Of a stretch of 64,000 nt of DNA, positions 3,049 through 62,446 are shown piece by piece; within the stretch, counting starts at the first letter, position 1, and each line of letters begins with the position of its first letter. The position numbers and the translations under genes are program-made. The notes beneath the pieces were generated by a model. That model made no database searches, was not told the DNA's origin, and saw only the letters and a program-made list of their open reading frames with translations. Source of the DNA: Selenomonadaceae bacterium (GTDB taxonomy: Bacteria; Vulcanimicrobiota; Xenobia; Xenobiales; JADMJV01); the NCBI GenBank assembly GCA_037189585.1, contig JBBCJA010000013.1:259067-323066 (forward strand), read 5' to 3'.

Positions 3049-4092
3049 CTAGGCCTCGACGGGCTCCTCTTCGTTGACTTCGTTGGCCTGACCGTTCGTC
3101 TGGCCCCGATTAGTGCCGGACACCGCGCGAACTTGACGTTCAATGGCGTCGGCCATCTCGGGATTATCCTCTAAGAAAGTCCGTGAGTTATCGCGTCCTT
3201 GACCTAGCTTGGTATCGCCGAAGGCGTACCAGCTTCCGGTTCGTGTGGTCACACCAAGTCCGGTCGCCACATCCAAGAGAGAGCCTTCACGCGAGATCCC
3301 TTTGCCGAAGAGAATGTCGAACTCGGCTGTCTTGAAGGGAGGAGCCAGTTTGTTCTTCACCACTTTCACCCGCGCGCGGTTTCCTGTGACATCCTGACCT
3401 TGCTTGATGCTCTCCACTCGTCGCACTTCCAAGCGGACAGAGGAGTAGAACTTCAGAGCGCGTCCGCCTGGAGTGGTCTCCGGCGAGCCGAACATCACTC
3501 CGACCTTCTCACGGATCTGGTTGACGAAGATGACGGCGGTTTTCGACTTGGAGATTACCGCGGTCAACTTACGCAGAGCTTGCGACATCAAGCGGGCCTG
3601 CAGACCCACGTGGGCATCTCCCATGTCGCCCTCAATCTCGGCTCGGGGCACCATCGCGGCCACCGAGTCGACGACGACGACGTCCACGGCGTTGGAGCGG
3701 ACCAGGGTCTCCACAATCTCGAGGCCCTGTTCACCGGTATCCGGCTGAGAAACGTAGAGATTTTCAAGATCGACTCCGATATTGGCCGCGTAGATGGGGT
3801 CCAGAGCATGCTCGACGTCGATGAAGGCCGCTACTCCGCCCATTTTCTGGGCTTCGGCCAGAACATGCAGAGTCAATGTGGTTTTACCGGAAGATTCCGG
3901 TCCGTAGATTTCAGTCACGCGCCCGCGCGGAATTCCACCGACGCCGAGAGCGACGTCAATGGCGATGGAGCCGCTGGGGATGACGGGAACCTCAAAGCGG
4001 TTGCCGGCTTCCCCCAATTTCATGATAGAGCCCTTGCCGAACTGGCGCTCAATCTGTGATAATGCTGCTTCAAGAGCTTTTTTCTTGTCCAT
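3049..4092 (-). CDS. recA: Recombinase RecA
   Basis: [28 protein letters not shown]..., Walker [10 protein letters not shown], and L2/L1 loop motifs. Start set at the MDKKK codon (4092), with GGAG 8 nt upstream on the minus strand. Confidence 0.95.
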
Positions 4093-4130: not shown

Positions 4131-4290
4131 TTTTTCGAGAATCTCCTTCTCGAAACCCAATTTTTTTTCGACCTCCACTTTTTCGTGAGGATTTTCACCA
4201 AACCACCGATCATCATGTAAAAATTTTGAGTCAAAAGGTCTTCCGAGGGGATTTCGTGTAGGCCCCGATTCGGAAACTACTCTAGGAGTC

Positions 4291-9441: not shown

Positions 9442-9996
9442 ATGGATGCGTTTCGCGGGCTGGGTCAACTTGTCGGTATACTATTGGCGTTGTTCGGAGT
9501 TTTCTTCGGGGTTTTTCTCGTTCGGCGTGCAGTTAACCACGAAAAGGATCAGCGACGCGAGCGGGAGCGCGCGAATCCGCAAGAGCTGGAGCGACTCAAG
9601 GCGGAAAAAGCAAAGCGAGATTGGCGTATGGTGTCTTGCGCCTGTCTCCCGCCTCTCTTGATTCTTGTAGGTTTTATGGTCACTGGAGGATTGCACGCGG
9701 TTAAGCTGGAGAAGGCCTATAACTTGACGGACCAACATTTTAAAGCGGGAGCTTATGGAGAAGCTATCAAGTCCGCGCAGCCTGTCTTAGACGAGATCGA
9801 AGAGCGTTACGACCGCTATGGCTTAAAATTGCATGCAAAGCCACTTCCGGTAGATTCGGCCAGGCTGACCCGAATAGTTATCCGGTCTCTGATGAAGGAA
9901 GGGCGAAAGGAAGAAGCGGCTCAGCTTTTTTCAGTGTACCGTCAGAGGTTTTCTGACGCGCCGGACCCGGCGCTCGCCCGCGAAGTAGGGAAATGA
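9442..9996 (+). CDS. Hypothetical membrane protein (2 TM segments plus helical, TPR-like C-terminus)
   Basis: Two hydrophobic helices (LVGILLALFGVFFGVFLV, PPLLILVGFMVTGGL) and a charged linker. No recognisable catalytic motif. Confidence 0.4.
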   Translation: MDAFRGLGQLVGILLALFGVFFGVFLVRRAVNHEKDQRRERERANPQELERLKAEKAKRDWRMVSCACLPPLLILVGFMVTGGLHAVKLEKAYNLTDQHFKAGAYGEAIKSAQPVLDEIEERYDRYGLKLHAKPLPVDSARLTRIVIRSLMKEGRKEEAAQLFSVYRQRFSDAPDPALAREVGK

Positions 9997-11270: not shown

Positions 11271-12518
11271 GTGCTTGTTCCACGCTCTTGGCGGTCTTTA
11301 GTCTTATGTGCCCTACTGGCGCTCAGTCTACTTTCTCCCACCCAGGCCGATCGCGGAGACGCGCTTCGTTTCGAAGCCGCCGTGGCCCAGATCTCGAAGC
11401 TCGCTAAGAAGCGCCCCACGATCGAGACCCTTCTGGATAGTGCCCGAAACGCCGTTCCCTCACTGGGAGACGACGCCTTGACCGTGGCGGGACTTTCCCA
11501 TCGCCTGAACGGAAGTTCGGACGCGGAACTTTCCACCGCCGTCATCAAGGCGATGCTGAAGTCTCTCGATGATCGATGGGCCCGTCTCTACTCTCCGGAG
11601 GAGAGCCAGAACATGCGATCGGGTCTCAACGGAGATGGGTTGGGTAGCTTAGGTCTCAACCTGGTCCACGACGGCACTAAAAATCAGGGCTACCTGATCT
11701 CCGACGTCGCTCCCAATGGGCCAGCCCTGGGGTTGATCAAAGCCGGCGAGCGACTGCGGTCGGTGGACGGTACGGATTTGACCAAGCCGACAGAAGTGTC
11801 CCTCGATTCCCTCTTGCACGGACAACCGGGGTCGGTGGCGCATCTGTTGGTTTCCGACATTAAGGGAAAGAGCCGCGAGGTGGATGTCACTCGGGTCGAT
11901 CTGGATGCCCCCACGGCCTATCTGACCAAGACCGACCGGGATAGCGCGGAGATTCGTATCACCAGTTTTGGCGCCGATACCGCCAAGGAACTCCAACAGA
12001 TTCTGGACCAAACCCGAGTCGAGACACTGGTCCTCGACCTTCGCTGCAATGGGGGAGGGTACGTCAAGTCGGCGGTGGCCTGCTCCTCCCTTTTTGTCAA
12101 GGACGGCTCTCTGGTCGTGCAGACCGAATCGCCCGACGGCGTGACTCCGCTTTATAGCGAGGGCGCCCCTCGTTTCAAAGGCTCCGTGGTGCTGCTAGTC
12201 AATAGCAAAACGGCCAGCGCCGCGGAGATCTTCACCGCTTGTCTACAACATCACCTGGATGCCGAAGTCATCGGCGAGACCACTTACGGCAAAGGATCGG
12301 TTCAGCGGATCGTCGACCTGCCCGGTAAATGGGCTCTCAAAGTTACCACTTCGGCCTATCGAACCGCGGCCGGTGATCTGATCGACGGGATCGGGATCAA
12401 GCCCGACCTGGAGCTTAAGATGCCCATCGCCGCGTGCCGCACCGAGGACGACACCCAGATGGCTCAAGCACGCCAACACGTTCGTCATCTGGCCGCCAGT
12501 CCCCCTAGCAAATCCTAA
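11271..12518 (+). CDS. S41 family C-terminal processing (tail-specific) protease with PDZ domain
   Basis: Signal peptide (MLVPRSWRSLVLCALLALSLLSPTQA), a PDZ region, and the S41 catalytic block DLRCNGGGYV...NSKTASAAEIF. GTG 11271 has a better RBS than GTG 11226. Confidence 0.8.
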   Translation: MLVPRSWRSLVLCALLALSLLSPTQADRGDALRFEAAVAQISKLAKKRPTIETLLDSARNAVPSLGDDALTVAGLSHRLNGSSDAELSTAVIKAMLKSLDDRWARLYSPEESQNMRSGLNGDGLGSLGLNLVHDGTKNQGYLISDVAPNGPALGLIKAGERLRSVDGTDLTKPTEVSLDSLLHGQPGSVAHLLVSDIKGKSREVDVTRVDLDAPTAYLTKTDRDSAEIRITSFGADTAKELQQILDQTRVETLVLDLRCNGGGYVKSAVACSSLFVKDGSLVVQTESPDGVTPLYSEGAPRFKGSVVLLVNSKTASAAEIFTACLQHHLDAEVIGETTYGKGSVQRIVDLPGKWALKVTTSAYRTAAGDLIDGIGIKPDLELKMPIAACRTEDDTQMAQARQHVRHLAASPPSKS

Positions 12519-23489: not shown

Positions 23490-23561
23490 GCCTCTTCCGG
23501 CGGCAGGCCTCGGCATCACCGGCGACAAAGCAGATCGCCTGCCGAATTTTTCCGGTTGACA

Positions 23562-23587
23562 CACATTGTGAAAAGCTTCACAATGTG
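23562..23587. promoter_or_regulatory. Perfect CRP-consensus palindrome (TGTGA-N6-TCACA) overlapping a TTGACA -35-like hexamer upstream of the cox operon
   Basis: cacatTGTGAaaagctTCACAatgtg is an 11-4-11 perfect inverted repeat at 23562-23587. TTGACA sits at 23556-23561. The ctaA-ctaB ATG is at 23615. Confidence 0.5.
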
Positions 23588-23614
23588 ACCCGGTTTGGGA
23601 GTGTATTTCTATTT

Positions 23615-25447
23615 ATGAAAAGAGAATCCAAAAGTCTGGGGGAGACGGCTTTACCGAGTCCCTTCGCGCTTTTTGTCAGGGTTCTCGTCGTATGTACCGC
23701 ACTCTTGGTTCTCGTCGGAGCGATGGTGACCACTACCGGCTCGGGCCTGTCGGTTCCCGACTGGCCCCTTTCCTTCGGAAAGATCAATCCGACCATGGTC
23801 GGGGGAGTGGCTTTCGAGCATGGACATCGCCTGGTCGCCTCGGCGGTGGGCTTTCTGGTCCTTGTCGCCGCTATCTGGGCCACCTCGATTCGAGCCAACA
23901 CGGTGGTCCGAAGGCTTTCACTGTTCGCTCTCGCCTTGGTTATTTTCCAAGGACTCCTGGGCGGATTGACCGTTCTCATGCGCCTGCCCACCGCGGTTTC
24001 CGTTGCCCACGGCACCACCGCTCAGATTTTCTTTTGCACGATCGTCGCTCTACTCTGGTGGACCGATTCGCGCTTTGTCGCCTCGATCGCCAAGATTGAA
24101 GGGCCGGCCGCTCGAGATCTTATGATCTCGAGCGGGGCGATGACCGGATTGATCTTCGCCCAGCTGTTGGTGGCCGCCACCATGCGACATCTCGGCGCGG
24201 GATTAGTCATTCCCGACTTCCCGACCTCACTGGGGCGGATTATTCCGCCTTTGACCTCTCTTCCCATCGCCATCAACTTCACCCACCGAGTTTTGGCTTT
24301 AGCCATCTTCGCCATGGCGATTCTACTGTGCCGGCGCGTCTTCAAGTTTCATCGCGAGATGACCGTGCTGAGCAGACTTTCAGCCGTTCTTGTCGGCTTG
24401 ATTTTGGTCCAGGTCACCCTGGGTGCTCTGACGGTGTGGGGAGGCCGAGGGCTTTTTTCGACCTCCCTTCACGTGATGAATGGAGCCCTGGTGCTCGCCA
24501 CCGCTTTCTCCATCTTTCTCTGGTCCTGGCGGCTCACCCGCCCTCGTCGCGACGACGGGAATAAGGGTGAGGAATCTTCCAGCGCGGCCACTAAGATGAG
24601 CGACGTCAGCCGCAAGGACTGGATGGACCTGGCCAAGGTTCGGCTAGTGACGATGAGCGTCTTCACCGCTCTGTGTGGATTTCTCCTCGGGGGAACAGCC
24701 TTGAGTGTCGCGGGTCTGGTTGTCACCGTGATCGGCGTTTCTCTTCTTGGTGCTGGTTCGAGCATGCTCAACCACGTTATGGAGGTGGAGACCGACGCCC
24801 GCATGGAGCGGACGCGGAATCGACCTCTTCCCACGGGCCGAGTCTCGGTGGCTTTGGTGGAGCGTACCGGCGGTCTGCTGATCGCGGCGGGGACGCTTTG
24901 TCTGGGGCTATGGCAACCCTGGGCGGGACTGCTGGCTTTTGCCGCCTTCTTTTCCTACGTCTTCGTGTACACCCCGATGAAGACTTGGAGCCCGAGCTGT
25001 ACGGTGGTTGGCGCCGTCCCGGGGGCTCTCCCGGTGTTGATAGGTTACGTTGTCCGCACGGGAGTGCTCGACATCGGTGGGTTAATCTTGTTCGCCATCC
25101 TGTTTCTTTGGCAGTTGCCACATTTTATGGCTATCGCCTGGCTCTGCCGCGAGGATTACGCTCGCGCGGGCTTACCGATGGTCACGGTGATCGATCCGAA
25201 AGGGACCCTGGCCTCTTCTCAGATTTTGATCTATAGCCTGGCCCTGCTGCCGGTCTCGATGGCTCCAACCCTGGTAGGGATGGCCGGCCAACTTTATTTC
25301 TACTGCGCGCTATTGCTCGGGATCGTCTACCTCTCCTCGGGTGTGAACTTGTGCTGGCGTAAGTCCACCGTGGCGGCGCGAAAGCTGTTGTTGACCTCGG
25401 TGGTCTACCTCCCCTTACTGTACGGAGTGATGGTTGTGAACAGTTGA
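23615..25447 (+). CDS. Fused heme A synthase (CtaA/COX15-like) and protoheme IX farnesyltransferase (CtaB/CyoE)
   Basis: The N-terminal half has CtaA His-containing helices (FEHGHRLVASAVGF...). The C-terminal half has the CtaB motif NHVMEVETDARMERTRNRPLPTGRVS. 610 aa, polytopic. Confidence 0.8.
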   Translation: MKRESKSLGETALPSPFALFVRVLVVCTALLVLVGAMVTTTGSGLSVPDWPLSFGKINPTMVGGVAFEHGHRLVASAVGFLVLVAAIWATSIRANTVVRRLSLFALALVIFQGLLGGLTVLMRLPTAVSVAHGTTAQIFFCTIVALLWWTDSRFVASIAKIEGPAARDLMISSGAMTGLIFAQLLVAATMRHLGAGLVIPDFPTSLGRIIPPLTSLPIAINFTHRVLALAIFAMAILLCRRVFKFHREMTVLSRLSAVLVGLILVQVTLGALTVWGGRGLFSTSLHVMNGALVLATAFSIFLWSWRLTRPRRDDGNKGEESSSAATKMSDVSRKDWMDLAKVRLVTMSVFTALCGFLLGGTALSVAGLVVTVIGVSLLGAGSSMLNHVMEVETDARMERTRNRPLPTGRVSVALVERTGGLLIAAGTLCLGLWQPWAGLLAFAAFFSYVFVYTPMKTWSPSCTVVGAVPGALPVLIGYVVRTGVLDIGGLILFAILFLWQLPHFMAIAWLCREDYARAGLPMVTVIDPKGTLASSQILIYSLALLPVSMAPTLVGMAGQLYFYCALLLGIVYLSSGVNLCWRKSTVAARKLLLTSVVYLPLLYGVMVVNS

Positions 25448-25539: not shown

Positions 25540-26727
25540 ATGAGGAATATGATGCCAAAAAGATACCTGAAAGCCGTGAGTGGTCCCCTCTCGCGGATTC
25601 TTCTCGCGCTCCTGGCGATCTTGAACACCGGTTGTGTGAACGAGGTGCGCGGCACCTTGAATCCGCTCGGCCCGGTGGCCGAACGCCAGATGAGCACGTT
25701 CATGGTGACCTTGTGGGTCAGCTTGGGGATGTTCGTGGTGGTGGGTTCCTTTCTCGTCTACTGCCTCGTGAAGTTTCACCATAAGGGCGAGATCACGAAG
25801 GACACGCCGCTGCCCGACCAGAGTCACGGTAACGCCTTGACCGAAATAGGCCTGATCTTGATCTCCGTGTTCTTAGTCGGGATCATCGCCTTGCCCACCG
25901 TGCAGGGTGTGTTCTACGTCGGGACCTTACCGAGCGACCAGAAGGTCTACGAAGTCAACGTCACCGGCCTTCAGTGGTGGTGGAAATTCGAATACCCCGA
26001 ATATGGAGTCGTGACGGCCAACGAGATCGCCATCCCGGCCGGTCGCCCGGTCAAGTTCAATCTCCAGACAGCGGACGTGCTCCATTCCTTCTGGGTGCCC
26101 CGCCTTGGCGGCAAGATGGACTTAAATCCAGGCCAGGATAACTGGCTCTGGTTGCAAGCCGATCCGGAAATGCTGGCGGCCGACGCCAAGGAACTGTCAA
26201 CTTCGGGCGGCTCTCCCCGTTGGGCTCATCTTCCCGCTGACTATCCCTTCCAAGGCTACGTTCTCTATGGGCAGTGCGCTGAGTACTGCGGGTCTTCACA
26301 CGCCTTCATGCAGTTTCGAGTGTTAGTGCTCGATGACGCCAACTTCCAGAAGTGGGTCGAGTGGCAGAAGTCGGATTCGAAGTCGACCCTAACCGCTGGC
26401 GAGGTCGCCCAAGGCCAAGCGGTGTTCATGAAGAACAAGTGCCAAACGTGTCACACGGTTCGCGGCACCAATGCCAAAGGTCTGGTCGGTCCTGACCTGA
26501 CCCACATTGGAAGTCGCACCTCCATCGCGGCCGGTTGGTTGGAAAACACTCCGGAGAATCTGGGACACTGGATTCAAAAGCCGGGTGAACTCAAGCCCGA
26601 GAACATCATGTACGTGACAGGTTACCAGCACACAGACAAGTGGGGTGGCCTGGTCAACAACTCTCAGATCGTCGTTACCGACGAGGAGCGTGACGTGCTG
26701 GCCAAATATCTCTACAGTCTTAAGTAA
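25540..26727 (+). CDS. coxB: Cytochrome c oxidase subunit II with fused C-terminal cytochrome c domain (caa3-type)
   Basis: CuA ligands HSFWVPRLGGKMD ... CAEYCGSSHAFM, followed by the heme-c site CQTCHTV. N-terminal signal plus 2 TM segments. Confidence 0.9.
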   Translation: MRNMMPKRYLKAVSGPLSRILLALLAILNTGCVNEVRGTLNPLGPVAERQMSTFMVTLWVSLGMFVVVGSFLVYCLVKFHHKGEITKDTPLPDQSHGNALTEIGLILISVFLVGIIALPTVQGVFYVGTLPSDQKVYEVNVTGLQWWWKFEYPEYGVVTANEIAIPAGRPVKFNLQTADVLHSFWVPRLGGKMDLNPGQDNWLWLQADPEMLAADAKELSTSGGSPRWAHLPADYPFQGYVLYGQCAEYCGSSHAFMQFRVLVLDDANFQKWVEWQKSDSKSTLTAGEVAQGQAVFMKNKCQTCHTVRGTNAKGLVGPDLTHIGSRTSIAAGWLENTPENLGHWIQKPGELKPENIMYVTGYQHTDKWGGLVNNSQIVVTDEERDVLAKYLYSLK

Positions 26728-26738
26728 GGGAGCTTAAA

Positions 26739-28745
26739 GTGTCCTCCGAAGAAATGCACATAGAACCGGCCCCCGAAAAGGGCTTCTTCGATAACATCTT
26801 TCCCCGTCAGGTCGAGCCCAAGGGTTTGATCGGATGGCTTACCACCATCGACCACAAACGGATCGGTATTCTTTACGGAGTGACCGCGCTGTTCTGGTTC
26901 CTGGTGGGCGGCTTGGAAGCGCTGATGATCCGCATCCAGCTGCATACCTCGGACTTCCGGGGTTTCATCTCGGCCGAGACTTACAATAGTCTGTTCACGA
27001 TGCACGGCACCACGATGATCTTCTTGGTCGTGATGCCCCTGGCGGTGGCCTTCTTTAACTACGTGATGCCGCTACAGATCGGCGCTCGAGACGTGGCTTT
27101 TCCACGCATGAACGCGTTTAGTTATTGGATGTTCTTGTTCGCCTCCATCTTGCTGAACATCTCCTGGTTCTTCGGTGAAGCGCCTCACATGAGCTGGGTA
27201 GGGTACGCGCCTATCACCGAGATTCAGTACACGCCCGGTATGGCCGGTGAGTTCTGGATTATCGGCCTGCAGCTTCTCGGTGTGGCCTCTATCGTGGGTT
27301 CATTGAACTTCATCACCACCATCATCAACATGCGAGCGCCCGGTATGACCTTTATGAGAATGCCGGTGTTCTCTTGGATGACCTTGGTGACCGGTTTTCT
27401 GATCATCCTGGCTTTCCCGGCCATCACCATCTGCTTGGCGGAGTTGATGTTCGACCGGCTCTTCGGTACCAACTTTTTCCAGGCGGCCGCCGGTGGTCTC
27501 CCTATTTTGTGGCAACACCTTTTTTGGGTCTTCGGCCACCCCGAAGTTTACATTTTGATTTTGCCTCCGATGGGTATGGTCAGCGAGATCCTTCCGGTCT
27601 TCTCTCGTAGGCCGCTCTTCGGCTATCCGCTGATCGTCGGTTCCGGCATCGCCATCGGCCTGATGGGCTTCACTGTGTGGAGCCACCATATGTTCACCTC
27701 GGGTCTGGGCAATATCGCCACCGCGGCTTTCGCCCTGACCACGATGGCTATCGCGGTTCCCACCGGCGTTAAGATCTTCAACTGGATCGGAACGCTCTAC
27801 AAGGGTCAACTGATCATGGCCACTCCGATGTTGTTCTCGCTCGGATTCATCTACCAGTTCATGATGGGCGGATTCTCCGGCTTGATGCACGCCAACGCGG
27901 TGCACGACCTTCAGCAGCACGACTCCTACTTCATCGTGGCTCACTTCCACTACGTCTTGATCGGCGGAGCGCTCTTCGGAACGTTCGCGGGTCTATACTA
28001 CTGGTTTCCCAAGGTGACCGGTCGAAAGCTTGACGAAAAGTTCGGAAAATTCGTTTTTTGGTTCCTCTTCGTAGGCTTCAACCTAACTTTCTTCCCGATG
28101 CACTGGTTGGGCCTCAACGGAATGCCCCGCCGTATCTACACCTACTCACCAAACATGGGTTGGGATACGATCAACATGGTCTGTACCTTCGGCGCGTTGC
28201 TGATGGCGGTCGCCGTGGTGGTGTTCTTCTGGGACCTCTTCCGCACGGCTAAGAGCGGACAAGTGGCGGGATTCGATCCCTGGGACGCTCGCACTGTCGA
28301 GTGGTCCATCCCGAATCCTCCGCCCGTGTACAACTTCAAAGACACCCCACAGGTCAAGTGCCTGGACGATTTCTGGTACGCGAAGTACCCCGAGACCATG
28401 GTGCACGACGAGGACGAGACTATGCACCCGTCCGACTACGTCGCGGCTGACCCGGCCGTTCATGGCCACAGCCACGACGACCACGGTATCCACATGCCGG
28501 GCGGAAGTTGGTTCCCGATGTTCGCCGCGCTGGGGTTCTGTATCGGTGGCTTCGGCATTGTGATGCACGGTTTCTTCATTCCAGATCCGGTAGCGGCTAA
28601 ATCCATGTCCACCCTCAGTATCCTACTTCGCGAATACTGGCTCGCGATTCTGGGTGGACTGATGGGAGTCGCCTCGGTCTTCGCCTGGGCGATGGAGCCG
28701 ATTGGCGGTTACAACATTCACTTCAAGGAAGAGGACAACAAATGA
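26739..28745 (+). CDS. ctaD: Cytochrome c oxidase subunit I with a C-terminal extension of about 110 aa (His-rich loop plus 2 extra helices)
   Basis: Canonical heme-copper oxidase helices and His ligands (WFFGHPEVYIL, HHMF). GTG start with an AAGGGA RBS. The extension carries HGHSHDDHGIH. Confidence 0.95.
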   Translation: MSSEEMHIEPAPEKGFFDNIFPRQVEPKGLIGWLTTIDHKRIGILYGVTALFWFLVGGLEALMIRIQLHTSDFRGFISAETYNSLFTMHGTTMIFLVVMPLAVAFFNYVMPLQIGARDVAFPRMNAFSYWMFLFASILLNISWFFGEAPHMSWVGYAPITEIQYTPGMAGEFWIIGLQLLGVASIVGSLNFITTIINMRAPGMTFMRMPVFSWMTLVTGFLIILAFPAITICLAELMFDRLFGTNFFQAAAGGLPILWQHLFWVFGHPEVYILILPPMGMVSEILPVFSRRPLFGYPLIVGSGIAIGLMGFTVWSHHMFTSGLGNIATAAFALTTMAIAVPTGVKIFNWIGTLYKGQLIMATPMLFSLGFIYQFMMGGFSGLMHANAVHDLQQHDSYFIVAHFHYVLIGGALFGTFAGLYYWFPKVTGRKLDEKFGKFVFWFLFVGFNLTFFPMHWLGLNGMPRRIYTYSPNMGWDTINMVCTFGALLMAVAVVVFFWDLFRTAKSGQVAGFDPWDARTVEWSIPNPPPVYNFKDTPQVKCLDDFWYAKYPETMVHDEDETMHPSDYVAADPAVHGHSHDDHGIHMPGGSWFPMFAALGFCIGGFGIVMHGFFIPDPVAAKSMSTLSILLREYWLAILGGLMGVASVFAWAMEPIGGYNIHFKEEDNK

Positions 28746-29353
28746 GCGCGCATGGGTCCCATCTGATAGAGAACCCGCACGAGATCGGAACCACGGGGCT
28801 TCCTCACCGGAAGATCATGATGTGGCTCTTCCTGGCCTCGGACTGTATGTTCTTCGGAGCGTTGATCAGCACGTATCTGATCTATCGAGGACGAAGTATC
28901 GCCGGGCCGACTCCAGAGGAGATCTTCGACATCCCCCTGACCTCCACGTCCTCGTTCGTGCTGTTGATGAGTTCGTACCTGATGGTACTGGCTCTGGCGG
29001 CGATCGAGCGCAACGACTTGACCAAGTTTAGGGTCTACTGCCTGGGAACAGCCTTCTTCGGTTCGATCTTTTTGGGCTTCCAGGTCTACGAGTTCACCCA
29101 CTTCTATCACGCCGGCTTGACCTTGCATGGTTCGGTCTTCGGTAGTTCGTTCTACGTTCTGACCGGGACGCACGGCTGTCACGTGGCGATAGGCGTTCTC
29201 TGGCTACTGGCCCTTTTCTTCTATTCGTTCACCGGTGGGGTAACCCAGCGACGAGCCTTGGACGTGGAGATCGCCGGTCTGTACTGGCACTTCGTGGACA
29301 TCGTCTGGATCGTGATCTTTGTCGCTGTCTATCTGCTCGAGTACATTATTTAA
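28742..29353 (+). CDS. ctaE: Cytochrome c oxidase subunit III
   Basis: ATGA overlap with the ctaD stop. MWLFLASDCMFFGALISTYLIYRG and the conserved subunit III helices. Confidence 0.85.
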   Translation: MSAHGSHLIENPHEIGTTGLPHRKIMMWLFLASDCMFFGALISTYLIYRGRSIAGPTPEEIFDIPLTSTSSFVLLMSSYLMVLALAAIERNDLTKFRVYCLGTAFFGSIFLGFQVYEFTHFYHAGLTLHGSVFGSSFYVLTGTHGCHVAIGVLWLLALFFYSFTGGVTQRRALDVEIAGLYWHFVDIVWIVIFVAVYLLEYII

Positions 29354-29364
29354 AGGAAGGTCCG

Positions 29365-29805
29365 ATGAAGCACGAAGAAGATAAAGAAGTTCAAGGCCTC
29401 TCGATTGTCGCGCGCTATACCATCACCGCGGTGGTGTTGGCCGTCGTGACCGCGATCGAGGTGCTGGTTCTCTACCCGCCGCTGGTTCGGGCCGGAGACA
29501 CTTTTAAGATCGCACTGCTGGCCTTTTTGGGTATCGGCAAGTTCATTCTGGTGGTCGGGCTGTTCATGCACCTTTGGAACGATGACCCTATCTTCACCGG
29601 AATCTTCGGTCTAGGTATGGTCATCGGTGTTGGAACTCTGGTCGCGCTGCTGGCGGTGATGAACGTGTATCCTCACCGAAGCGACGCCGTGAAGGCTCCC
29701 CCGCTAAGACAGATCTATGAAGATAGGGAGAAGGTTCGCCGAGGCGAGGCTCTACCCCATACTGAACAGCACTCTTGGCGGCAGTGGGAAGCCCTTAGCG
29801 CCTAA
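29365..29805 (+). CDS. Small membrane subunit, CoxIV/CtaF-like (prokaryotic COX4 family) with C-terminal tail
   Basis: Three TM helices immediately after ctaE. Pattern resembles bacterial subunit IV. Confidence 0.5.
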   Translation: MKHEEDKEVQGLSIVARYTITAVVLAVVTAIEVLVLYPPLVRAGDTFKIALLAFLGIGKFILVVGLFMHLWNDDPIFTGIFGLGMVIGVGTLVALLAVMNVYPHRSDAVKAPPLRQIYEDREKVRRGEALPHTEQHSWRQWEALSA

Positions 29806-29815
29806 GGGGTACGAG

Positions 29816-30250
29816 ATGCGTCCTGAGCGGCTACTACCCATCATCGTGGTGATCGTGGGAGTGGTCGCTTTTTTTTCAGTCTATCACAAGAAGAGCCAGC
29901 CCGTTCCGGTCCCTCCGGAGCTGGCTGGCCTGCCTGGGCCTCGGCTCTTTTTCGAGCACGATTGTGTCACGTGCCATACCGTGACCGCGCTACCGGGCGC
30001 ACGCGGCACCCTGGGTCCGGGGCTTGACGACATCGGACAGCGCGCGCCTACTATGGATGGGGGAGACGGCCGGAACTATCTTCGGGACTCGCTACTGGAA
30101 CCCGGGAAGACCGTACGGGAAGGATTTGTCAACGCCATGCCAAGTTTCGCGGGCAAGATTTCGGATCAGGAACTCAACCAGATGGTCGACTGGCTTCTAA
30201 CTCTCAAGAAGGACGAGGCTAGGTCGCCGGGAGGAAAGTCTGGTGAGTGA
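29816..30250 (+). CDS. Membrane-anchored mono-heme cytochrome c
   Basis: N-terminal TM anchor, then heme-c motif CVTCHTV, with a Met distal ligand candidate at NAMPSF. The start ATG follows the upstream stop. Confidence 0.65.
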   Translation: MRPERLLPIIVVIVGVVAFFSVYHKKSQPVPVPPELAGLPGPRLFFEHDCVTCHTVTALPGARGTLGPGLDDIGQRAPTMDGGDGRNYLRDSLLEPGKTVREGFVNAMPSFAGKISDQELNQMVDWLLTLKKDEARSPGGKSGE

Positions 30251-31040
30251 TTTTCTAGGCGGCCTCTTCACCCCGGACCCTGGAGTCGTGGATGGGATCC
30301 TTGCCCTGTCGGTTCTTTACGTTCTAGCTGTCTGGCCCTTGCGTCGTTACCTGGTACCGGAAGAGCCTTTTGAAAGATGGCGGGCGAGCCTCTTTGCCAC
30401 CGGGGTCGTGATCTTGATTCTCGCGGTAGCGACGCCGATGGACGAGATCGGGGAGAAGTATCTCTTCTCCATGCATATGTTGCAGCATGTCATTTTGATT
30501 TTCATTCTGCCCCCGTTCTTGATTCTCGGCTTGCCCAACTGGTTGGTTGACTTTCTCTTGCGCACCGAGGGACTGGGCGCCGTTTTGAGATTTTTGATCA
30601 AACCCGTGGTGGCCTGCGTTCTGTTCAACGCAATGCTCATCATCTGGCACATACCGGCTTTTTACGAGCTGGCCCTTCGCGACAGTTTGGTCCATCTGCT
30701 CGAACATCTCGGTTTCACCGGGACGGCGATTTTGATGTACTGGCCCCTGATCGACCCTGGGACGAAGAAAGAAGAGAAACCCGTGCATCCGGGGATCAAG
30801 ATCCTTTACATCCTCGGGGTCAGTATCGGCCAGCTGCCGCTCTTCGCGGCCTTGACCTTCTCCAACACGGTTTTCTACCCGACTTATGAGGCCGCGCCCC
30901 GGTTGGAGAGCTTTAACATCAGTCCTATTGATGACCAGATTCTGGGAGGAGCGATCATGAAGATCGCCGCGGTGGCTTATATGTTTTTTGGACTAGCCGT
31001 GTACTTCTATCGCTGGTATTGGTCCGAGCACCGAAGATAG
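30243..31040 (+). CDS. ctaG: caa3-type cytochrome oxidase assembly factor CtaG (Caa3_CtaG family membrane protein)
   Basis: Polytopic. HMLQHVILIFILPPFLILG and WHIPAFYELALRD are typical of Bacillus-type CtaG. GTG start overlaps the upstream stop. Confidence 0.65.
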   Translation: MSDFLGGLFTPDPGVVDGILALSVLYVLAVWPLRRYLVPEEPFERWRASLFATGVVILILAVATPMDEIGEKYLFSMHMLQHVILIFILPPFLILGLPNWLVDFLLRTEGLGAVLRFLIKPVVACVLFNAMLIIWHIPAFYELALRDSLVHLLEHLGFTGTAILMYWPLIDPGTKKEEKPVHPGIKILYILGVSIGQLPLFAALTFSNTVFYPTYEAAPRLESFNISPIDDQILGGAIMKIAAVAYMFFGLAVYFYRWYWSEHRR

Positions 31041-39495: not shown

Positions 39496-41239
39496 CCGAA
39501 GAGTTCGGTGGGCGCTCGTCGCCGGTCTGCTGTTTTCGTGCTGCTCCTCCGGCTGCGAGTCTCCCGAACCGTTGGCACGAGAGACTCCGCGGCCCGCTCG
39601 ACCCGGCTCGAGGTTACCCCGGACGCAGCCCGAGCCCGCGGTTCCGATTGTCGTTGCGACGGCGACCGCCGACCCAACTCCGACCGTCGTAGGGAATGCG
39701 TCCGTCGTTGCCGCGCCGACTCGGACTTCCGAGCCGCCGGCTCAACCCGACCCGAGTAGTAGCCTACCTCTGACCCTTCCGGGTCCCACCAACGCGACCA
39801 GTTCTGATGACGGGGAACTCAAGACGCTTCTGGCCGAGGCCAGGAGTTCCAAAATGGCGGCACAATGGCGCAAGGCTGGGGAGCGCGCTCTCAAGTTGGA
39901 CCTTTACGGAGAAGCCGCCAAGGCGTTCCGGCAAGAAGCCAGCATCTACCGGTCCAAAGGGATTCTTCAGGCCGCGCTGGCCCAGGAGGCGCGGGCCGAT
40001 CAGTATTCCACCGAATTCGGATTTTACCTTAGCGGGCGCTCTAGCCTTTCCACCCAACGGACCGCCGAGCGTCTAGAGCCGCCCGCGGGATGTCTGGTGG
40101 GCGCGTTCATCGACCGCGACGACAAGGTGCGAAACTTCATGATGGTCTCGCAGACCCACGGCGATGTCGATGAATTCAACGAGTTGACGGGGAAAAAACA
40201 CGCCAGCTTTTTCATGTATCGCTCCTACGGCGAGCCTTTCCCCAAGCAGTGGGCCGAGTATCTGAAGGCCCGCGGCGCCATTGTCCACCTGGCCTGGGAG
40301 CCGCGCGATCTGGCCAGGGTCAAAGACGACGCCTATCTGAAGAGTTTTGTCGACGCGATGGTCGCCTTGGACCACCCTGTCATGTTGCGCTTCGCCAGTG
40401 AGATGAACGGTGAGTGGACTCCTTATCATGGCGACCCCAAGGCTTACAAAGCAGCCTTTCGCTTAGTCCACCGAGCCACGCGGCGGGCCTCTAAAGTTGC
40501 CATGATGTGGTGTCCCAACACCATCCCTCGCCAGGGACTCGAGGATTACTATCCGGGCGACGACGCGGTGGATTGGGTCGGAGTCAACTTTTACAGCGTT
40601 CCTTTTCTCGATAACGATCGCAACCGCCCGGGAGAACTGATCCATCCCACCGATCACTTGAAAACGGTCTACGGTCTCTACTCCTCTCGTAAGCCGATCG
40701 CCATTGGAGAATGGGCGGCCAGCCACCAGTCGAGCGCGACACCGATACCCCTGGTGGATTTCGCCAAGACCAAGATCTCCCAACTGTACGGCTCACTTCC
40801 CACCCGCTTCCCTCGAGTGAAGATGGTCAACTGGTATAGCTCGAACAATCTTCGTCACGCCAGCCCGTCGCGCCAACTCAACAACTACCAGGTGACCGAG
40901 CCGGAGGAACTGCTCGAGCACTACCGCCGGGCCGTTTCCTCCTCTTACTACCTCGGCGCGGAGGGGAACGGTGAAGGGACGGAGCAGGCCTTCCGACCCG
41001 TGTTCGGACGAGTTTCCGCGAGCACTTCCTCGGAATTGCGCATTGCACTGAAAACCTACGAGCAACGCCCCAAAGTCTATTTCCGGGTCAACGACGAGTT
41101 GAAGTTAGCATCGGACGAGCCTTTGGATTGGCGGCTGTCGGCACGAAATTGGAGAGACGGAAAAAATATCGTCGAGGTACTGGTTTACGATCAAAAGAAT
41201 CGGTTCATCACCAGCGAGAAGCTTATACTTGTCCGTTGA
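39464..41239 (+). CDS. Secreted (lipoprotein-like) protein with Pro/Thr-rich linker, helical region and C-terminal GH26-like (mannanase-family) glycoside-hydrolase domain
   Basis: Signal-like RRVRWALVAGLLFSCCSSGC. The C-terminal block WEPRD...MLRFASEMNGEW...YYPGDDAVDWVGVNFY...IAIGEWA resembles the GH26 catalytic Glu contexts. The start (TTG 39464) is uncertain; the upstream part of the long ORF from 39266 looks non-coding. Confidence 0.55.
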   Translation: MDVSSFSSRSSRRVRWALVAGLLFSCCSSGCESPEPLARETPRPARPGSRLPRTQPEPAVPIVVATATADPTPTVVGNASVVAAPTRTSEPPAQPDPSSSLPLTLPGPTNATSSDDGELKTLLAEARSSKMAAQWRKAGERALKLDLYGEAAKAFRQEASIYRSKGILQAALAQEARADQYSTEFGFYLSGRSSLSTQRTAERLEPPAGCLVGAFIDRDDKVRNFMMVSQTHGDVDEFNELTGKKHASFFMYRSYGEPFPKQWAEYLKARGAIVHLAWEPRDLARVKDDAYLKSFVDAMVALDHPVMLRFASEMNGEWTPYHGDPKAYKAAFRLVHRATRRASKVAMMWCPNTIPRQGLEDYYPGDDAVDWVGVNFYSVPFLDNDRNRPGELIHPTDHLKTVYGLYSSRKPIAIGEWAASHQSSATPIPLVDFAKTKISQLYGSLPTRFPRVKMVNWYSSNNLRHASPSRQLNNYQVTEPEELLEHYRRAVSSSYYLGAEGNGEGTEQAFRPVFGRVSASTSSELRIALKTYEQRPKVYFRVNDELKLASDEPLDWRLSARNWRDGKNIVEVLVYDQKNRFITSEKLILVR

Positions 41240-41282
41240 GAATCCCGAGGAGATCGCTCCTTGGAACCAAAAGAGCCTCCTT

Positions 41283-42440
41283 ATGCAGCCACACGATATC
41301 GACCAGACACAGGCCCATTCCACGGCCGAGCTCGAGCAGATCCGTCCGACGGACTTTTCCCTCGTCTGCCGAGCCAGCGGGGAGCGCCGGCGAGTGGTGG
41401 TGCCACGGACTCACCTTTTTATCTCTTCAAAGTCCTATCTGGTGGTTGACGAGCAAGAGGTTCAGCTGCATACCGAACACCCTGACATCGTGACGGTCAA
41501 CGGCGCGGCTTTCAGCGGAGAGCCTTTGCGACCGGGAGACGAGATCGCGGAGAATGGGAGAGCCTTTGTGTTGGAGAGTTCTCCCGTGGTGGCTTTCTTG
41601 GAAGGTCTGACCCCCCCTCACCAGGGGACCTTCTGGCCCTTAGGGGAGGAGAGCGTCACCGTGGGCCGTCCCGGCAAGCGAGACAATACCATCTCTCTTT
41701 TGGACAAGACGGTCAGTCGCGAACAAGCGACCCTGACATACCAGCAGGGACGATTCGTGCTGATACCCGAGGCCGCTAGCAGCACCAGTACGGTGAACGG
41801 CCGCCCGGTGGAGCAGAAGATGGTTCTGCGCAACGGAGACCTTCTGGCCTTCGGACAACAGATTGTGCGCTTCCAGAGCAATCACGATACCTTCGGTGCG
41901 GGTCAAGGGACGATTTTCTTTTGCGACGTGTGGGACTACTCCAATCTCTTCCACGGCCGGGCCGTGCACGAGGTCGCGCAGCTGATGAGGGAGTTTTACG
42001 AGGCCGCCGGGGAGGTGGTCGAAGGGAACGGAGGACTGGTCCTTCGTTACATCGGGGATGCCCTTTTGGCTGCTTTCTCCGAGGATGGACACGCGGACTC
42101 CGCGGTGGCGGCGGGCTTGGCGCTGCAGGCTCGGCTGGCCGAGCTCAACGCGGACTGGGCGACGCGCGGCATGCCGGTGTTGCAAGTGGGAGTCGGGATC
42201 AACTCGGGTGAATTCGCGGTCGGCCATATGGGCTTCGCTGGCTACATCGAGTTCGGAGCACTTGGGCCTGATGTGAATATGGCGGCTCGGATCGAGAAAC
42301 TGACCCGAGATCACGATTCGAAAGTTCTCTTGGGAGAGTCGACGGCGACTCTCTTGACCCGGGACTACCCCCTGCACTCGCTAGGCAGGCTAAACCTCAA
42401 GGGAGCTCAGGAAGAGATCGAAGTCTTCGCTGTGGTCTAG
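41283..42440 (+). CDS. FHA-domain (x2) class-III adenylate cyclase
   Basis: Canonical FHA VTVGRPGKRDNTISLLDKTVSREQATL...NGRPV. A divergent FHA-like segment lies upstream. The cyclase domain has metal Asp residues in FFCDVWDYS and YIGDALLAAF, and GPDVNMAARIE suggests adenylyl specificity. Confidence 0.8.
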   Translation: MQPHDIDQTQAHSTAELEQIRPTDFSLVCRASGERRRVVVPRTHLFISSKSYLVVDEQEVQLHTEHPDIVTVNGAAFSGEPLRPGDEIAENGRAFVLESSPVVAFLEGLTPPHQGTFWPLGEESVTVGRPGKRDNTISLLDKTVSREQATLTYQQGRFVLIPEAASSTSTVNGRPVEQKMVLRNGDLLAFGQQIVRFQSNHDTFGAGQGTIFFCDVWDYSNLFHGRAVHEVAQLMREFYEAAGEVVEGNGGLVLRYIGDALLAAFSEDGHADSAVAAGLALQARLAELNADWATRGMPVLQVGVGINSGEFAVGHMGFAGYIEFGALGPDVNMAARIEKLTRDHDSKVLLGESTATLLTRDYPLHSLGRLNLKGAQEEIEVFAVV

Positions 42441-44386
42441 GCTAGAGTCGCCCCTCCGAACAGCCGGAGCGCCTCGGTGGGGAGAATCTGCCCCTGGGCG
42501 ACCAGGACCTTGGCGAAGCTCTTGAACGAGAACAGTAGCCCGTGGGAGATGGCAGCCTTGCGGACGGCCTCGGGGCTACGTCCGGCGCGCATCATTTCGG
42601 CCAGGAACGGATTGAGTTTGAGCGACTCGAAAACCGCGACCTTGCCGGAAACCCCGCTTCCTCGACAACTGTCGCAGCCGGCTCCATGGAAGAAGCGGTC
42701 GTCGCGCGAGCCCAGGCCGGAGAGCTCCAGTTGAGAAACGACGGCGGGTGAAGGGCTATACGCCTGACGGCAGTGCGAACAGACTCGGCGCAGTAGCTGC
42801 TGGCCCAGAACCAGGCTGAGATTCTCCACGGTGGAGGCGGGTGCGTCCGGGCGACCCAGCAGCCCGGACAGTGCCGAGATGGGGTCGGTTCCACGCGTGG
42901 TGGTCAGCACGGTCAGTCCGTCCTCGGCGGCCTCTAAAACAGAGTTGAGACTCTCGCAGCCAGGTTCGTCGACCATCAAAACATCAGGTTTTTGCTCCAG
43001 AGCCACCCGCAAGGCCGAGGTGAGGTTCTGTCGCTCGCATTGACCCAGCAGGTCCCCTGGAAGTCGAACTTGGGCTATCTGATCCAGGGTTAGGAGAGGC
43101 TTTGTTTCTAAAGTCAAAGCGTTGACCCGTCCCGTCTCCTGGTCAAGGAGTCGAAGCAGACTATAGAGTGTCGTGCTACGTCCGGAGTGAGAGGAGCCGA
43201 CCACCAGCACGGCGCCCCCCTCGCCACGGATGGCAGCTTCGATCGTCTGTTTGAGAACGTCGACGGGCCACAGAGCGGAGGGCGAAGGGACAGCTTCTCG
43301 CGGGTCGGTGACGCCGACGGCATAACGCGCGCCGCGCAGGGTTTGCAAACGGGACAGGTGGACCTCGCATCGCTGCCCGTCGATCACGACCACTCGGGTC
43401 CGCACCTCGTTGGCCTCGGTGTCGGCCCCAAAGAGCGCCTTCAGCTGTTGCCCGAGCGCATTCTTTTGAGTCGAGTCAAGCTGGCAGTCGAGCGGTTCGA
43501 GTCGTCCTGACGAGCCGGCCGCGAAGAGGGCGACGCCATTGGGTGTCGGCTCCACGATCACCCTTCCCTGGTCACCAGCGTAGGCATGGGCCAGCAGAGT
43601 GTCAAAGGGAGCTCTCACCGGTTCCCCGCCTTCCAGAGTGATGCTCCTTGGAGGAGTGGCCGCGACGCTTGTCGAGGAAGGGGCTACGGTGGGAAGAAAC
43701 CGTTGAGCGAAGTCGGCGAAATCCTCCGCCGTACAGGCCATGGGGTTGATGCTCAGCCCCGGCGCCTGGCGACGCAGGGCGGCAAGTGTTGCCGTGTCGT
43801 GGGGGCGGGTCATGGCTACGGTGACCACGCCGGCTTCGAGACGCAGCGGAATGGCCTTGAGGGTTCGCAACAAGTTGGGAGTGAAAGTTTCGATGAGATC
43901 GGGCTGATTGATGATCTCTTCGGCGCGGGCGAAGTGAAATCCCATGCCGCCGAGCTGCTGGGCCAGACGAGTGGCCAAGTATCGGCTGATCTCGACAGCC
44001 ACCTGAGGCAGCTTCTCCAGGACCGAATCAAAAGAGGCCTTGGCCAGAACAAGGCAGGTTGTCGGCTCGAGGGCGCGCACCGTCGCCGCCCGGGGAGCCT
44101 CGGTCAGAAGTGACATCTCCCCGAAGGATTCCGGGCTGCGCCTCTCCGAGAGGACCTGTTCAACCCCCAGACTCGGCTCCTCTCGCACTACCACCACCGA
44201 GCCTTCGACTAAAATGAACAGTTCCGACCCTGGGTCGCCCTGGCGGACGATGACGGCGTCGGTCTCGAAAGCCATGGCTCGGGTGACTTTGGCTACCGCC
44301 TCGAGCAAGGGTGGAGAGAGTCTTGAGAAGAGGTCCGTCTGGGATAGGAGAGCAACGGCGGCTTGTTGGTCGAACATGGTGGGCAT
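42437..44386 (-). CDS. GspE/PilB-family secretion-ATPase homologue with N-terminal cyclic-nucleotide-binding domain and degenerate catalytic motifs (putative pseudo-ATPase)
   Basis: The cNMP domain (LFSRLSPP...FGEMSLL...RAATVRALEPTTCLVL) is followed by a T2SSE_N-like region and an ATPase core. Walker A is GSSHSGRSTTLYSLL versus the consensus GPTGSGKSTTLY (Lys to Arg). The Asp box is TLETKP versus TIEDP. The His box is GLTVLTTTRGT versus GHLVLSTLHTN, with both His lost. The tetracysteine CSHC...CDSC is retained. Start at M60 (44386, RBS GGGAAG) avoids overlap with the divergent TerB gene. Confidence 0.75.
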   Translation of the reverse strand: MPTMFDQQAAVALLSQTDLFSRLSPPLLEAVAKVTRAMAFETDAVIVRQGDPGSELFILVEGSVVVVREEPSLGVEQVLSERRSPESFGEMSLLTEAPRAATVRALEPTTCLVLAKASFDSVLEKLPQVAVEISRYLATRLAQQLGGMGFHFARAEEIINQPDLIETFTPNLLRTLKAIPLRLEAGVVTVAMTRPHDTATLAALRRQAPGLSINPMACTAEDFADFAQRFLPTVAPSSTSVAATPPRSITLEGGEPVRAPFDTLLAHAYAGDQGRVIVEPTPNGVALFAAGSSGRLEPLDCQLDSTQKNALGQQLKALFGADTEANEVRTRVVVIDGQRCEVHLSRLQTLRGARYAVGVTDPREAVPSPSALWPVDVLKQTIEAAIRGEGGAVLVVGSSHSGRSTTLYSLLRLLDQETGRVNALTLETKPLLTLDQIAQVRLPGDLLGQCERQNLTSALRVALEQKPDVLMVDEPGCESLNSVLEAAEDGLTVLTTTRGTDPISALSGLLGRPDAPASTVENLSLVLGQQLLRRVCSHCRQAYSPSPAVVSQLELSGLGSRDDRFFHGAGCDSCRGSGVSGKVAVFESLKLNPFLAEMMRAGRSPEAVRKAAISHGLLFSFKSFAKVLVAQGQILPTEALRLFGGATLA

Positions 44387-44459
44387 GGATACTTCCCGCG
44401 AAGGAAAGCGACCTTCCGCCAGGAGAATACCGTGGGTCGGAAAATCGTGCCCGGTGAGC

Positions 44460-45023
44460 ATGCAGAATCCATTTCGCGACGCCATGGTCTCTATTTCCAT
44501 TGCCGCCGCTTGGGCCGACGGGGGAGTGGAGGACTTCGAGAAGCAATCGCTGGACAGAATCATGGTGAGCCTGGGCTACAGTCGGGGCGAGATCATGACT
44601 CGCATCAGTCAGGCCTTGGAAGGACCGGACCTCGATCCCATCGAGCTTCCAGTCGAACCAAGTCTGTGCGTCCAGACGATGCGTTACGCTCTGGCGGTGA
44701 CCTTGTCCGACGGGGCTCTCTCGGCCGCGGAAGTGAACTTTTTGGCCAAGCTCGCTGAACATCTGGGACTTGACGCCAAAACTTTGGAGACGCTGCGAGC
44801 CGAGGCGGAGGGGATGGTGTCGGAGCGTCGCGCCGAGGGGCTCGTCAAACCGATCGAAAGATTGGAGTCTCTGCCCCCGGAAGCCAGAGTCAAGCTGGCC
44901 GACGCCGAGCTTGACCAGAAACCCTCCCCCAGGCATGGACCTGGCGAAGCTGTTGCTGGAGGAATCCTGGAGCCCAAAGTCCTCTACGAGGGTGAGGGCT
45001 TCGGTGGCCAGTTGGAGCTGTAG
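44460..45023 (+). CDS. TerB-like (tellurite-resistance TerB / DjlA N-terminal fold) domain protein
   Basis: ISIAAAWADGGVEDFEKQSLDRIMVSLGY and a second repeat, LAVTLSDGALSAAEVNFLAKLAEHLGL. GGTGAG RBS. Confidence 0.55.
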   Translation: MQNPFRDAMVSISIAAAWADGGVEDFEKQSLDRIMVSLGYSRGEIMTRISQALEGPDLDPIELPVEPSLCVQTMRYALAVTLSDGALSAAEVNFLAKLAEHLGLDAKTLETLRAEAEGMVSERRAEGLVKPIERLESLPPEARVKLADAELDQKPSPRHGPGEAVAGGILEPKVLYEGEGFGGQLEL

Positions 45024-45025
45024 GA

Positions 45026-48044: not shown

Positions 48045-48297
48045 TTCCCACTCGAGTCGACATAAAATTGGAGCTATCTTAGCAGCTTTGCTCGGCCTGC
48101 GAAATTGGCCTTGGAGCTTGAGAAAGTCTCGTTCCACGCCGAAGCGAGGAGATCGGAAAATAATCGGAAAAACTTCGATTACATTGTTCACTGACCTCCT
48201 GTGTCGAAAGGTCGCCGCGGACTGTTTTAGACAGTGTATGGACGACCAGGTGCGAGGAAATTTGATCAAAAATTTAACGTTAACCCGAGGTCGTCCG

Positions 48298-62024: not shown

Positions 62025-62446
62025 GTCAAGAACTCCTAGCCCCGGCGCGAGTCTTCGTGTTTGGGCAGCCAGTCGACATGCGCAAGAGCTTCGATGGATT
62101 GTACTGCATAGTCCGATACAAGCTCGAGGAAGAGCCCACTAGCGGTGACTTATTCCTGTTTCTGAACCGCCGACGAAATTACGTCAAGGGTTTGCTATGG
62201 GACCGCACAGGCTTCGTGATTATCGCAAAGCGTCTCGAGAACGGTCAGTTCAAGCTGCGAAACAAGGCCTCCAAAATCGTCATCTCGCGAGAATGTCTGA
62301 GAAAATTTCTAGACGGGATTTCTGTGGGAGGAGTTGAGATCGTGGGATCAAACCCTTTAAGCAGTGGACATGCAGACGCAGCTACAGAGGATGTCGAAGG
62401 CCGAACTGGTCTCCTTCGTCCTCCAGCAGCAAGCGGCCCAAGCTGA
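62021..62446 (+). CDS. IS66 Orf2 (TnpB-like) protein
   Basis: VFVFGQPVDMRKSFDGLYCIV...NRRRNYVKGLLWDRTGFVIIAKRLENGQFK is the IS66 Orf2 signature. Confidence 0.7.
   Translation: MSQELLAPARVFVFGQPVDMRKSFDGLYCIVRYKLEEEPTSGDLFLFLNRRRNYVKGLLWDRTGFVIIAKRLENGQFKLRNKASKIVISRECLRKFLDGISVGGVEIVGSNPLSSGHADAATEDVEGRTGLLRPPAASGPS

Follow-up and report, generated by a model that had tools for sequence, protein, structure and literature searches.

The intergenic region upstream of the cytochrome caa3 oxidase operon in a 64,000-nucleotide stretch of DNA from an uncultured, Xenobia-like (class) member of the Candidatus Eremiobacterota (contig JBBCJA010000013.1 of assembly GCA_037189585.1, positions 259,067 to 323,066 of the forward strand; the whole stretch is referred to below as the window) contains a perfect palindrome that is probably a Rex-type operator, situated in the core promoter of the ctaAB-caa3 operon and likely to keep this operon repressed until NADH rises. 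The 18-bp operator-like core of the palindrome, TTGTGAA-AAGC-TTCACAA (TTGTGAAAAGCTTCACAA; positions 23566-23583, no strand assigned), matches the Rex operator (ROP) consensus exactly, agreeing at 14 of the 14 positions specified in the published consensus from Streptomyces and Staphylococcus aureus. The consensus 5'-TTGTGAANNNNTTCACAA-3' was determined experimentally in Streptomyces (PMC5355995) and, in the form TTGTGAAW4TTCACAA, in S. aureus (PMC2883068). Besides the sequence itself and its exact ROP match, the place of the site in a predicted promoter and the purifying selection acting on the Rex-type positions across the phylum are established.

From these features we infer binding by Rex, repression as its mode of action and NADH as the signal. 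In the proposed mechanism, a NAD(H)-sensing Rex dimer would bind TTGTGAA-N4-TTCACAA, and at a low NADH/NAD+ ratio the bound dimer, lying in the 17-bp spacer and over the -10 hexamer of TTGACA-N17-CACAAT, would block RNA polymerase; accumulation of NADH would cause Rex to leave the DNA, allowing derepression of heme A synthesis and of the caa3 oxidase, and this in turn would provide more capacity for the reoxidation of NADH via the respiratory chain. The function of the operon, which encodes the CtaA-CtaB fusion and the caa3 oxidase, falls in the category of Rex targets, namely respiration, heme synthesis or NAD+ regeneration, and the Rex regulons of Streptomyces include the terminal oxidase operon cydABCD and the heme biosynthesis operon rex-hemACD (PMC5355995).

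Palindrome and core promoter

The extended 11-4-11 palindrome (23562-23587, no strand assigned) is composed of the arms CACATTGTGAA (23562-23572) and TTCACAATGTG (23577-23587), which are 100% complementary and separated by the 4-nt gap AAGC; its outermost 4 bp at either end are found in this genome only. As described in the first-pass annotation of this DNA, it directly follows the -35 hexamer TTGACA (23556-23561, forward strand), and its last base lies 28 bp upstream of the ctaA-ctaB start codon (ATG at 23615). From the stop of an upstream SpoU-type methylase gene (23489) to ctaAB, the intergenic region measures 125 bp; it also contains a Shine-Dalgarno-like GGGAG (23597-23601, forward strand) 13 nt before the ATG, with GGGAG or GAGGAA present at a comparable position before ctaAB in close orthologues.

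Neither an exact TTGTGAA-N4-TTCACAA nor the palindrome with its 22 specified bases was detected in any of 100 dinucleotide-preserving shuffles of the window, which has a G+C content of 58%; from base composition, 7e-5 matches to the 14 specified bases are expected per window. The first-pass annotation had read the half-sites as an exact consensus for the cAMP receptor protein CRP, and the core TGTGA-N6-TCACA does match exactly at positions 23567-23582; with up to one mismatch, this bare core is not rare in the window (two occurrences against 1.09 expected). Since the Rex consensus TTGTGAA-N4-TTCACAA is a subset of TGTGA-N6-TCACA, of which the CRP match covers 10 bases, the match to CRP is real yet less specific.

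Regarding the promoter, TTGACA-17 nt-CACAAT (23556-23584) agrees with the consensus at 10 of 12 hexamer positions; the 125-bp intergenic region contains no other promoter-like site, and 0.1 is expected in shuffles of this region. The palindrome core occupies the 17-bp spacer of this promoter, and the -10 hexamer CACAAT (23579-23584, forward strand) overlaps the right half-site. The transcription start, inferred from the promoter prediction, would be at approximately 23588-23592, which places the centre of the site, between 23574 and 23575, about 16 bp upstream of it. Because the site takes up the spacer and extends into the -10 hexamer of the predicted promoter, its placement has the putative geometry of a repressor site, at which a bound protein would occlude RNA polymerase. 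Among the ROP sites of Streptomyces, which are found within promoters, one similarly lies between the -35 and -10 hexamers (PMC5355995). The first-pass reading is supported in that the site abuts a consensus -35 hexamer and has a position suited to control of the caa3 oxidase operon, whose genes were confirmed downstream.

Class I and class II activation by CRP requires sites centred at -41.5 or further upstream. A regulator of the CRP/FNR family, responding to cAMP or another ligand, would be bound here near -16 relative to the predicted start, and not at -41.5, -61.5 or further upstream, and could at this position be expected to act as a repressor. Binding of the palindrome by such a protein is compatible with the exact TGTGA-N6-TCACA match, but is considered unlikely in view of this position and of the pattern of conservation described below.

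Conservation of the promoter in Eremiobacterota

Orthologous promoters were obtained from contigs encoding CtaAB homologues, from a GTDB match (L002) and from a pattern scan of metagenomes. The labelled CtaAB homologues bear the names Vulcanimicrobiota or Candidatus Eremiobacterota, and the nearest GTDB genome among the matches listed is a Candidatus Xenobia metagenome-assembled genome with a CtaAB identity of 78% (L002). Fourteen distinct orthologous promoters, from loci with CtaAB identities of 52-86%, align without gaps across the box and share the layout TTGACA-N4/5-(TT)GTGAA-N4-T(T/C)CACAAT. The GTGAA of the left half-site, the T following the 4-nt centre (T12) and the -10 hexamer CACAAT are each invariant (14/14), while 11 of the 14 have the outer TT of this half-site on the left. 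The -35 hexamer is TTGACA in 13 of 15 Eremiobacterota-type promoters, TTGACG in L118 and TTGACC in L003. The 4-nt stretch separating the -35 hexamer from the box is freely variable, as is the 3' flank, and the remaining intergenic DNA is unalignable.

In the distant orthologues, three of which were measured for G+C content (about 0.65-0.68), the left half-site reads GCGTGAA in L116, CGGTGAA in L117 and CCGTGAA in both L118 and L003, such that the first T of TGTGA is a C or G in all four, while the inner A and T, which correspond to positions 1 and 6 of the N6 of the CRP site, are never altered in the 14 orthologues. The structure of Thermotoga Rex bound to DNA revealed contacts of the protein to a G and an A of the operator (PMC8836258), which in our alignment of the crystallised oligonucleotide correspond to two invariant positions of the 7-mer half-site, G3 and A6. 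With the inner A and T fixed, the first T of TGTGA variable, and G3 and A6 invariant, the footprint has the pattern of constraint predicted for Rex and is unlike a classical 5-6-5 CRP site, the constraint relative to CRP being reversed. Of the CRP/FNR control suggested by the first-pass annotation, the operator-like site stands, whereas its assignment to that family is disfavoured by the agreement with 14 of 14 specified Rex positions versus 10 bases for CRP, by this non-CRP constraint and by the repressor position.

Loci of ctaAB labelled as other phyla, obtained by a profile scan of genome contigs with a CtaAB alignment (at least 80 loci), served as a negative control. Among the matches listed, 78 of 79 such loci have no site of this kind within 500 bp upstream, and the box is thus a lineage-specific regulatory feature. 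The sole exception among these 79 is L003, which is labelled 'uncultured Burkholderiales' and contains TTGACC-N4-CCGTGAA-ATCT-TTCACAAT at positions 3203-3240, ahead of a ctaAB fusion with 53% identity to that of the window; given its Eremiobacterota-type promoter despite the Burkholderiales label, it is probably a mis-binned Eremiobacterota contig.

The same alignment bears on whether the palindrome might act as a nucleic-acid structure (an RNA hairpin, terminator, attenuator or DNA cruciform) or be a chance or repeat palindrome without regulatory role, which is extremely improbable. As RNA, the 11-bp arms do fold into a hairpin of -17.7 kcal/mol with a z-score of -2.5, but no covariation was detected: the outer four pairs of the window's palindrome are neither conserved nor compensated in the orthologues, pairs 5 and 6 break uncompensated in four of them, and the measures lie within the range of the shuffles. 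Furthermore, the stem is A+T-rich and is not followed by a U-tract, and the site lies upstream of the predicted transcription start and so is probably untranscribed from this promoter. Chance is excluded by the shuffles together with the conservation in 14 genomes. Only one copy of the palindrome occurs in the window, also with up to three mismatches allowed, and it is therefore not a dispersed repeat. The lack of covariation and the single copy in the window led to the rejection of a hairpin, a terminator or a repeat element, and, judged by its conservation, the palindrome is a genuine and functional operator-like site under selection.

The composite motif elsewhere and the identity of the regulator

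The composite of -35 hexamer and operator, TTGACA-N4-TTGTGAA-N4-TTCACAA, was scanned for in JGI metagenomes and found at 27 loci, five of which are additional Eremiobacterota-type ctaAB promoters. The first gene downstream of the composite encodes a Rex-family protein (PF06971 + PF02629) of 212-216 aa in L090, L091, L093 and L095, with 26-34% identity to solved Rex structures; the four proteins form two groups with a mutual identity of only about 25%. As rex is located directly downstream in these four loci, putatively autoregulated rex genes of unrelated bacteria, from at least two divergent Rex lineages, have this same composite as their promoter. A CRP-family protein, on the other hand, was encoded by the first downstream open reading frame (ORF), where assigned, in 0 of the 27 composite loci. 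The four rex loci have exactly the same composite as the window but, unlike it, originate from other, lower-GC or anaerobic organisms; they illustrate the use of this promoter design elsewhere and say nothing of the presence of Rex in Eremiobacterota. In L095 (6314-7023 and 7036-12516), an extra downstream half-site (TTTCACAAAGG) accompanies the composite promoter of rex, and behind this gene lies the operon of a trimeric NADH-dependent [FeFe]-hydrogenase, encoding 2Fe-2S thioredoxin-like, Nuo51-type and Fe-only hydrogenase subunits.

A further 11 of the 27 composite loci are on high-GC contigs and have a longer palindrome, TTGACAGACATTGTGAA-N4-TTCACAATGTCTGTCAA (L096 3487-3524, L114 4050-4087, L098, L101, L105, L107-L111 and L113), with orthologues in L119 (approximately 11396-11430) and L120 (approximately 9845-9880). 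Between parA-parB and a divergent DJC28-like gene, this longer palindrome provides promoters that stand back to back; it is likewise situated ahead of a gene encoding a MarR-type regulator and a 474-aa ORF that is, by eye, likely a cytochrome P450. A full-length CRP homologue is encoded about 2 kb from the long palindrome in two of the 11 loci, with conserved synteny, and since homologues of this CRP are labelled Chloroflexota, an assignment of the high-GC loci to Eremiobacterota was rejected. L119 and L120, which were not selected by pattern, retain TGTGA and TCACA but have a G in place of the inner-left A (TTGTGAG), a constraint that appears more CRP-like, resembling the 5-6-5 arrangement, and the Eremiobacterota sites are thus under a different constraint from this Chloroflexota family. 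The recognition helix of the Chloroflexota CRP homologue, TRESVNKQL, presumably resembles that of actinobacterial CRP. For a CRP/FNR-family reader of the window's operator, the proximity of the Chloroflexota composite to crp and the constraint in L119 and L120 are points in favour, as is the near ubiquity of CRP/FNR proteins; the counts of first downstream genes, with rex in four loci and CRP in none, are a point against it.

Regarding regulator genes, Pfam scans of approximately 50 ORFs and tblastn searches, for which the queries were the sequences of four solved Rex structures and the CRP and FNR of E. coli, detected neither a Rex gene (PF06971 + PF02629) nor a gene for a CRP/FNR regulator, whether in the 64-kb window or in the retrieved Eremiobacterota loci. 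The window does contain an adenylate/guanylate cyclase-domain gene, which would speak for a cAMP-responsive regulator, and the first-pass annotation had suggested a link between the oxidase promoter and the cAMP genes of the window; no evidence for such a link was obtained in the window, where the only cNMP (cyclic nucleoside monophosphate)-binding domain is fused to a T2SSE ATPase adjoining this cyclase. The gene encoding the FHA-domain cyclase (41229-42440) adjoins the convergent gene of the T2SSE ATPase (42437-44563), whose cNMP-binding domain is N-terminal, and the cluster in which they lie (41229-49818) additionally contains genes encoding a T2SSF protein, two Ser/Thr kinases and a TerB/DUF533 protein. 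This position of the cyclase, next to a cNMP-binding ATPase and among kinase and secretion genes, suggests a local circuit, and the cluster has the appearance of a secretion or pilus system that is gated by cyclic nucleotides and has no relation to the oxidase promoter.

In Bacillus subtilis, ctaA is activated by ResD, whose binding sites contain TTGTGAA. The operator could accordingly be bound by another regulator of TTGTGAA-like half-sites, either a ResD-like protein of the OmpR family or a so far uncharacterised dimeric protein peculiar to Eremiobacterota, but this is improbable. Like the ResD-dependent ctaA promoter of B. subtilis, the promoter in the window has a heme A synthase gene as its target and TTGTGAA in the recognition element, and the Eremiobacterota loci searched yielded no gene for a Rex or CRP/FNR regulator. 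However, a two-fold symmetric inverted repeat with a fixed 4-bp spacing indicates a symmetric dimer, unlike the tandem direct repeats of the OmpR family; the site lies within the core promoter and not upstream of the -35 hexamer, where activators such as the OmpR-type ResD bind; and the exact composite was found upstream of rex genes.

Assignment of the operator to Rex has to be weighed against several points. The transcription start is a predicted position only, and one half of the operator coincides in part with the -10 hexamer, such that the promoter itself could explain part of the conservation. The central tetranucleotide, mostly WTCC in the orthologues, is more conserved than a free N4 predicts, and TGTGA-N6-TCACA is likewise the core of CRP-family sites. 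The missing Rex gene in the regions searched is a further point, as is the presence of a single operator in the window, which provides no regulon from the window alone. Lastly, the identical composite in the Chloroflexota family, about 2 kb from crp and with genes untypical of Rex regulons, implies that Rex cannot be deduced from the composite by itself. This family, with its crp linkage and the same composite, hints at a non-Rex reader. A repressor of the CRP/FNR family, or an undescribed regulator whose site has become identical to a ROP by convergence, would be a rather unlikely, though not negligible, explanation of the operator; if it were true, 'perfect Rex boxes' in uncultured Terrabacteria would not be assignable to Rex from sequence alone.

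If the operator is, as favoured here, of the Rex type, it closely resembles the ROP sites in the cydABCD, rex-hemACD, nuo and atp promoters of Streptomyces coelicolor and S. avermitilis, which have the same 18-bp consensus, lie inside or overlap the core promoter, and control respiratory-chain and heme operons by a repression that is released by NADH (PMC5355995). It differs from them in its target, a ctaA-ctaB fusion with a caa3-type oxidase and not cytochrome bd, and in its host, an uncultured member of the Eremiobacterota, a group for which no description of Rex or its regulon was found. Similarly, the half-sites and the 4-bp centre are identical to those of Firmicutes Rex sites, known from S. 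aureus and from the cydABCD, ldh-lctP and yjlC-ndh promoters of B. subtilis, and the WTCC centre of most Eremiobacterota orthologues, starting with A or T, partly resembles the W4 centre of S. aureus (PMC2883068). The Firmicutes Rex regulons are concerned with fermentation and anaerobic NAD+ regeneration, while the target here is an aerobic terminal oxidase. With the sites of E. coli CRP and actinobacterial CRP/GlxR the operator shares the 5+5 core and its 16-bp span, but its conservation extends inward past the core and relaxes at the first T, its position is that of a repressor, and no regulator gene of the family is located nearby.

The literature searched, including the Vulcanimicrobium paper, contained no mention of Rex in Eremiobacterota, and no report of Rex linked to a caa3 or cta operon was found in it. 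The element is of a well-known kind and would be an added member in a poorly studied phylum. In the milder reading of its significance, Rex would directly gate the main aerobic caa3 oxidase together with the synthesis of heme A. No report on targets of this class was found in that literature, in which transcriptional regulation in Eremiobacterota is likewise not described. Members of the Eremiobacterota (WPS-2) are abundant in oligotrophic soils and occur in other habitats, with one cultivated representative, and the phylum-wide operator provides the testable hypothesis that their aerobic respiratory capacity is tuned to the NADH/NAD+ ratio. A plausible mis-annotation would also be corrected, as reading TGTGA-N6-TCACA as a 'CRP' site would wrongly tie respiration to cAMP signalling.

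Oxidase operon and further observations

All genes of the operon are encoded on the forward strand. The first gene, the ctaA-ctaB fusion encoding heme A synthase and heme O synthase (23615-25447; COX15-CtaA + UbiA, 610 aa), has a start codon at 23615 that is supported by the gene call (610 aa, 100% match) and by the conserved N-terminus of homologues; identical copies of the protein are encoded on a 323-kb NCBI contig and in a Logan assembly. It is followed by genes encoding cytochrome c oxidase subunit II with a C-terminal cytochrome c domain, i.e., of the caa3 type (25540-26727; the gene call begins at 25552), subunit I (26739-28745; the gene call begins at 26754), subunit III (28742-29353; detected by Pfam and gene call), a subunit IV-like protein (29365-29805; COX4_pro, below the curated cut-off) and a c-type cytochrome (29816-30250; gene call of 144 aa), and the last gene of the co-oriented cluster encodes a Caa3_CtaG assembly factor (30243-31040; Pfam). 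The gene order of the operon is kept in L082, L084, L086, L088, L117 and L118. Subunit I was called at 789 aa in L084 (13079-15448) and at 741 aa in L086 (13077-15302), compared with 663-668 aa in the window, and may have an insertion or extension in these two loci.

Regarding further Rex-box-like sequences, a weak one, TCGTGAGGATTTTCACCA, with three mismatches and the sole additional match in the window, is located at 4183-4200 in the intergenic region between the divergent genes for recA and an M16 peptidase, and was dismissed as being at chance level in the window. Three Acidobacteriota loci contain a perfect or 1-mismatch Rex-box, TTGTGAAAGAGTTCACAA or TTGTGAAAAACTTCACCA (L052 19509-19526, L031 19921-19938 and L041 18580-18597); that of L052 is situated between the end of a nuoN-like gene and the apparent first ATP synthase genes (atpI/Z-like, atpB), an arrangement that would be similar to the atp operon under Rex control in Streptomyces. 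Two contigs of 46-47% G+C, L099 (794-831) and L100 (305-342), have a 38-bp perfect palindrome, TTGACACCTGTTGTGAAGATCTTCACAACAGGTGTCAA, flanked by ORFs that look like fragments of a reverse-transcriptase-type element, and this palindrome may be the terminal structure of a mobile element and not a promoter. Near the right end of the window, an ORF of an IS66-family transposase (62364-63725) was detected, which gave no exact match in the gene-position index and seems C-terminally short compared with the Pfam model.

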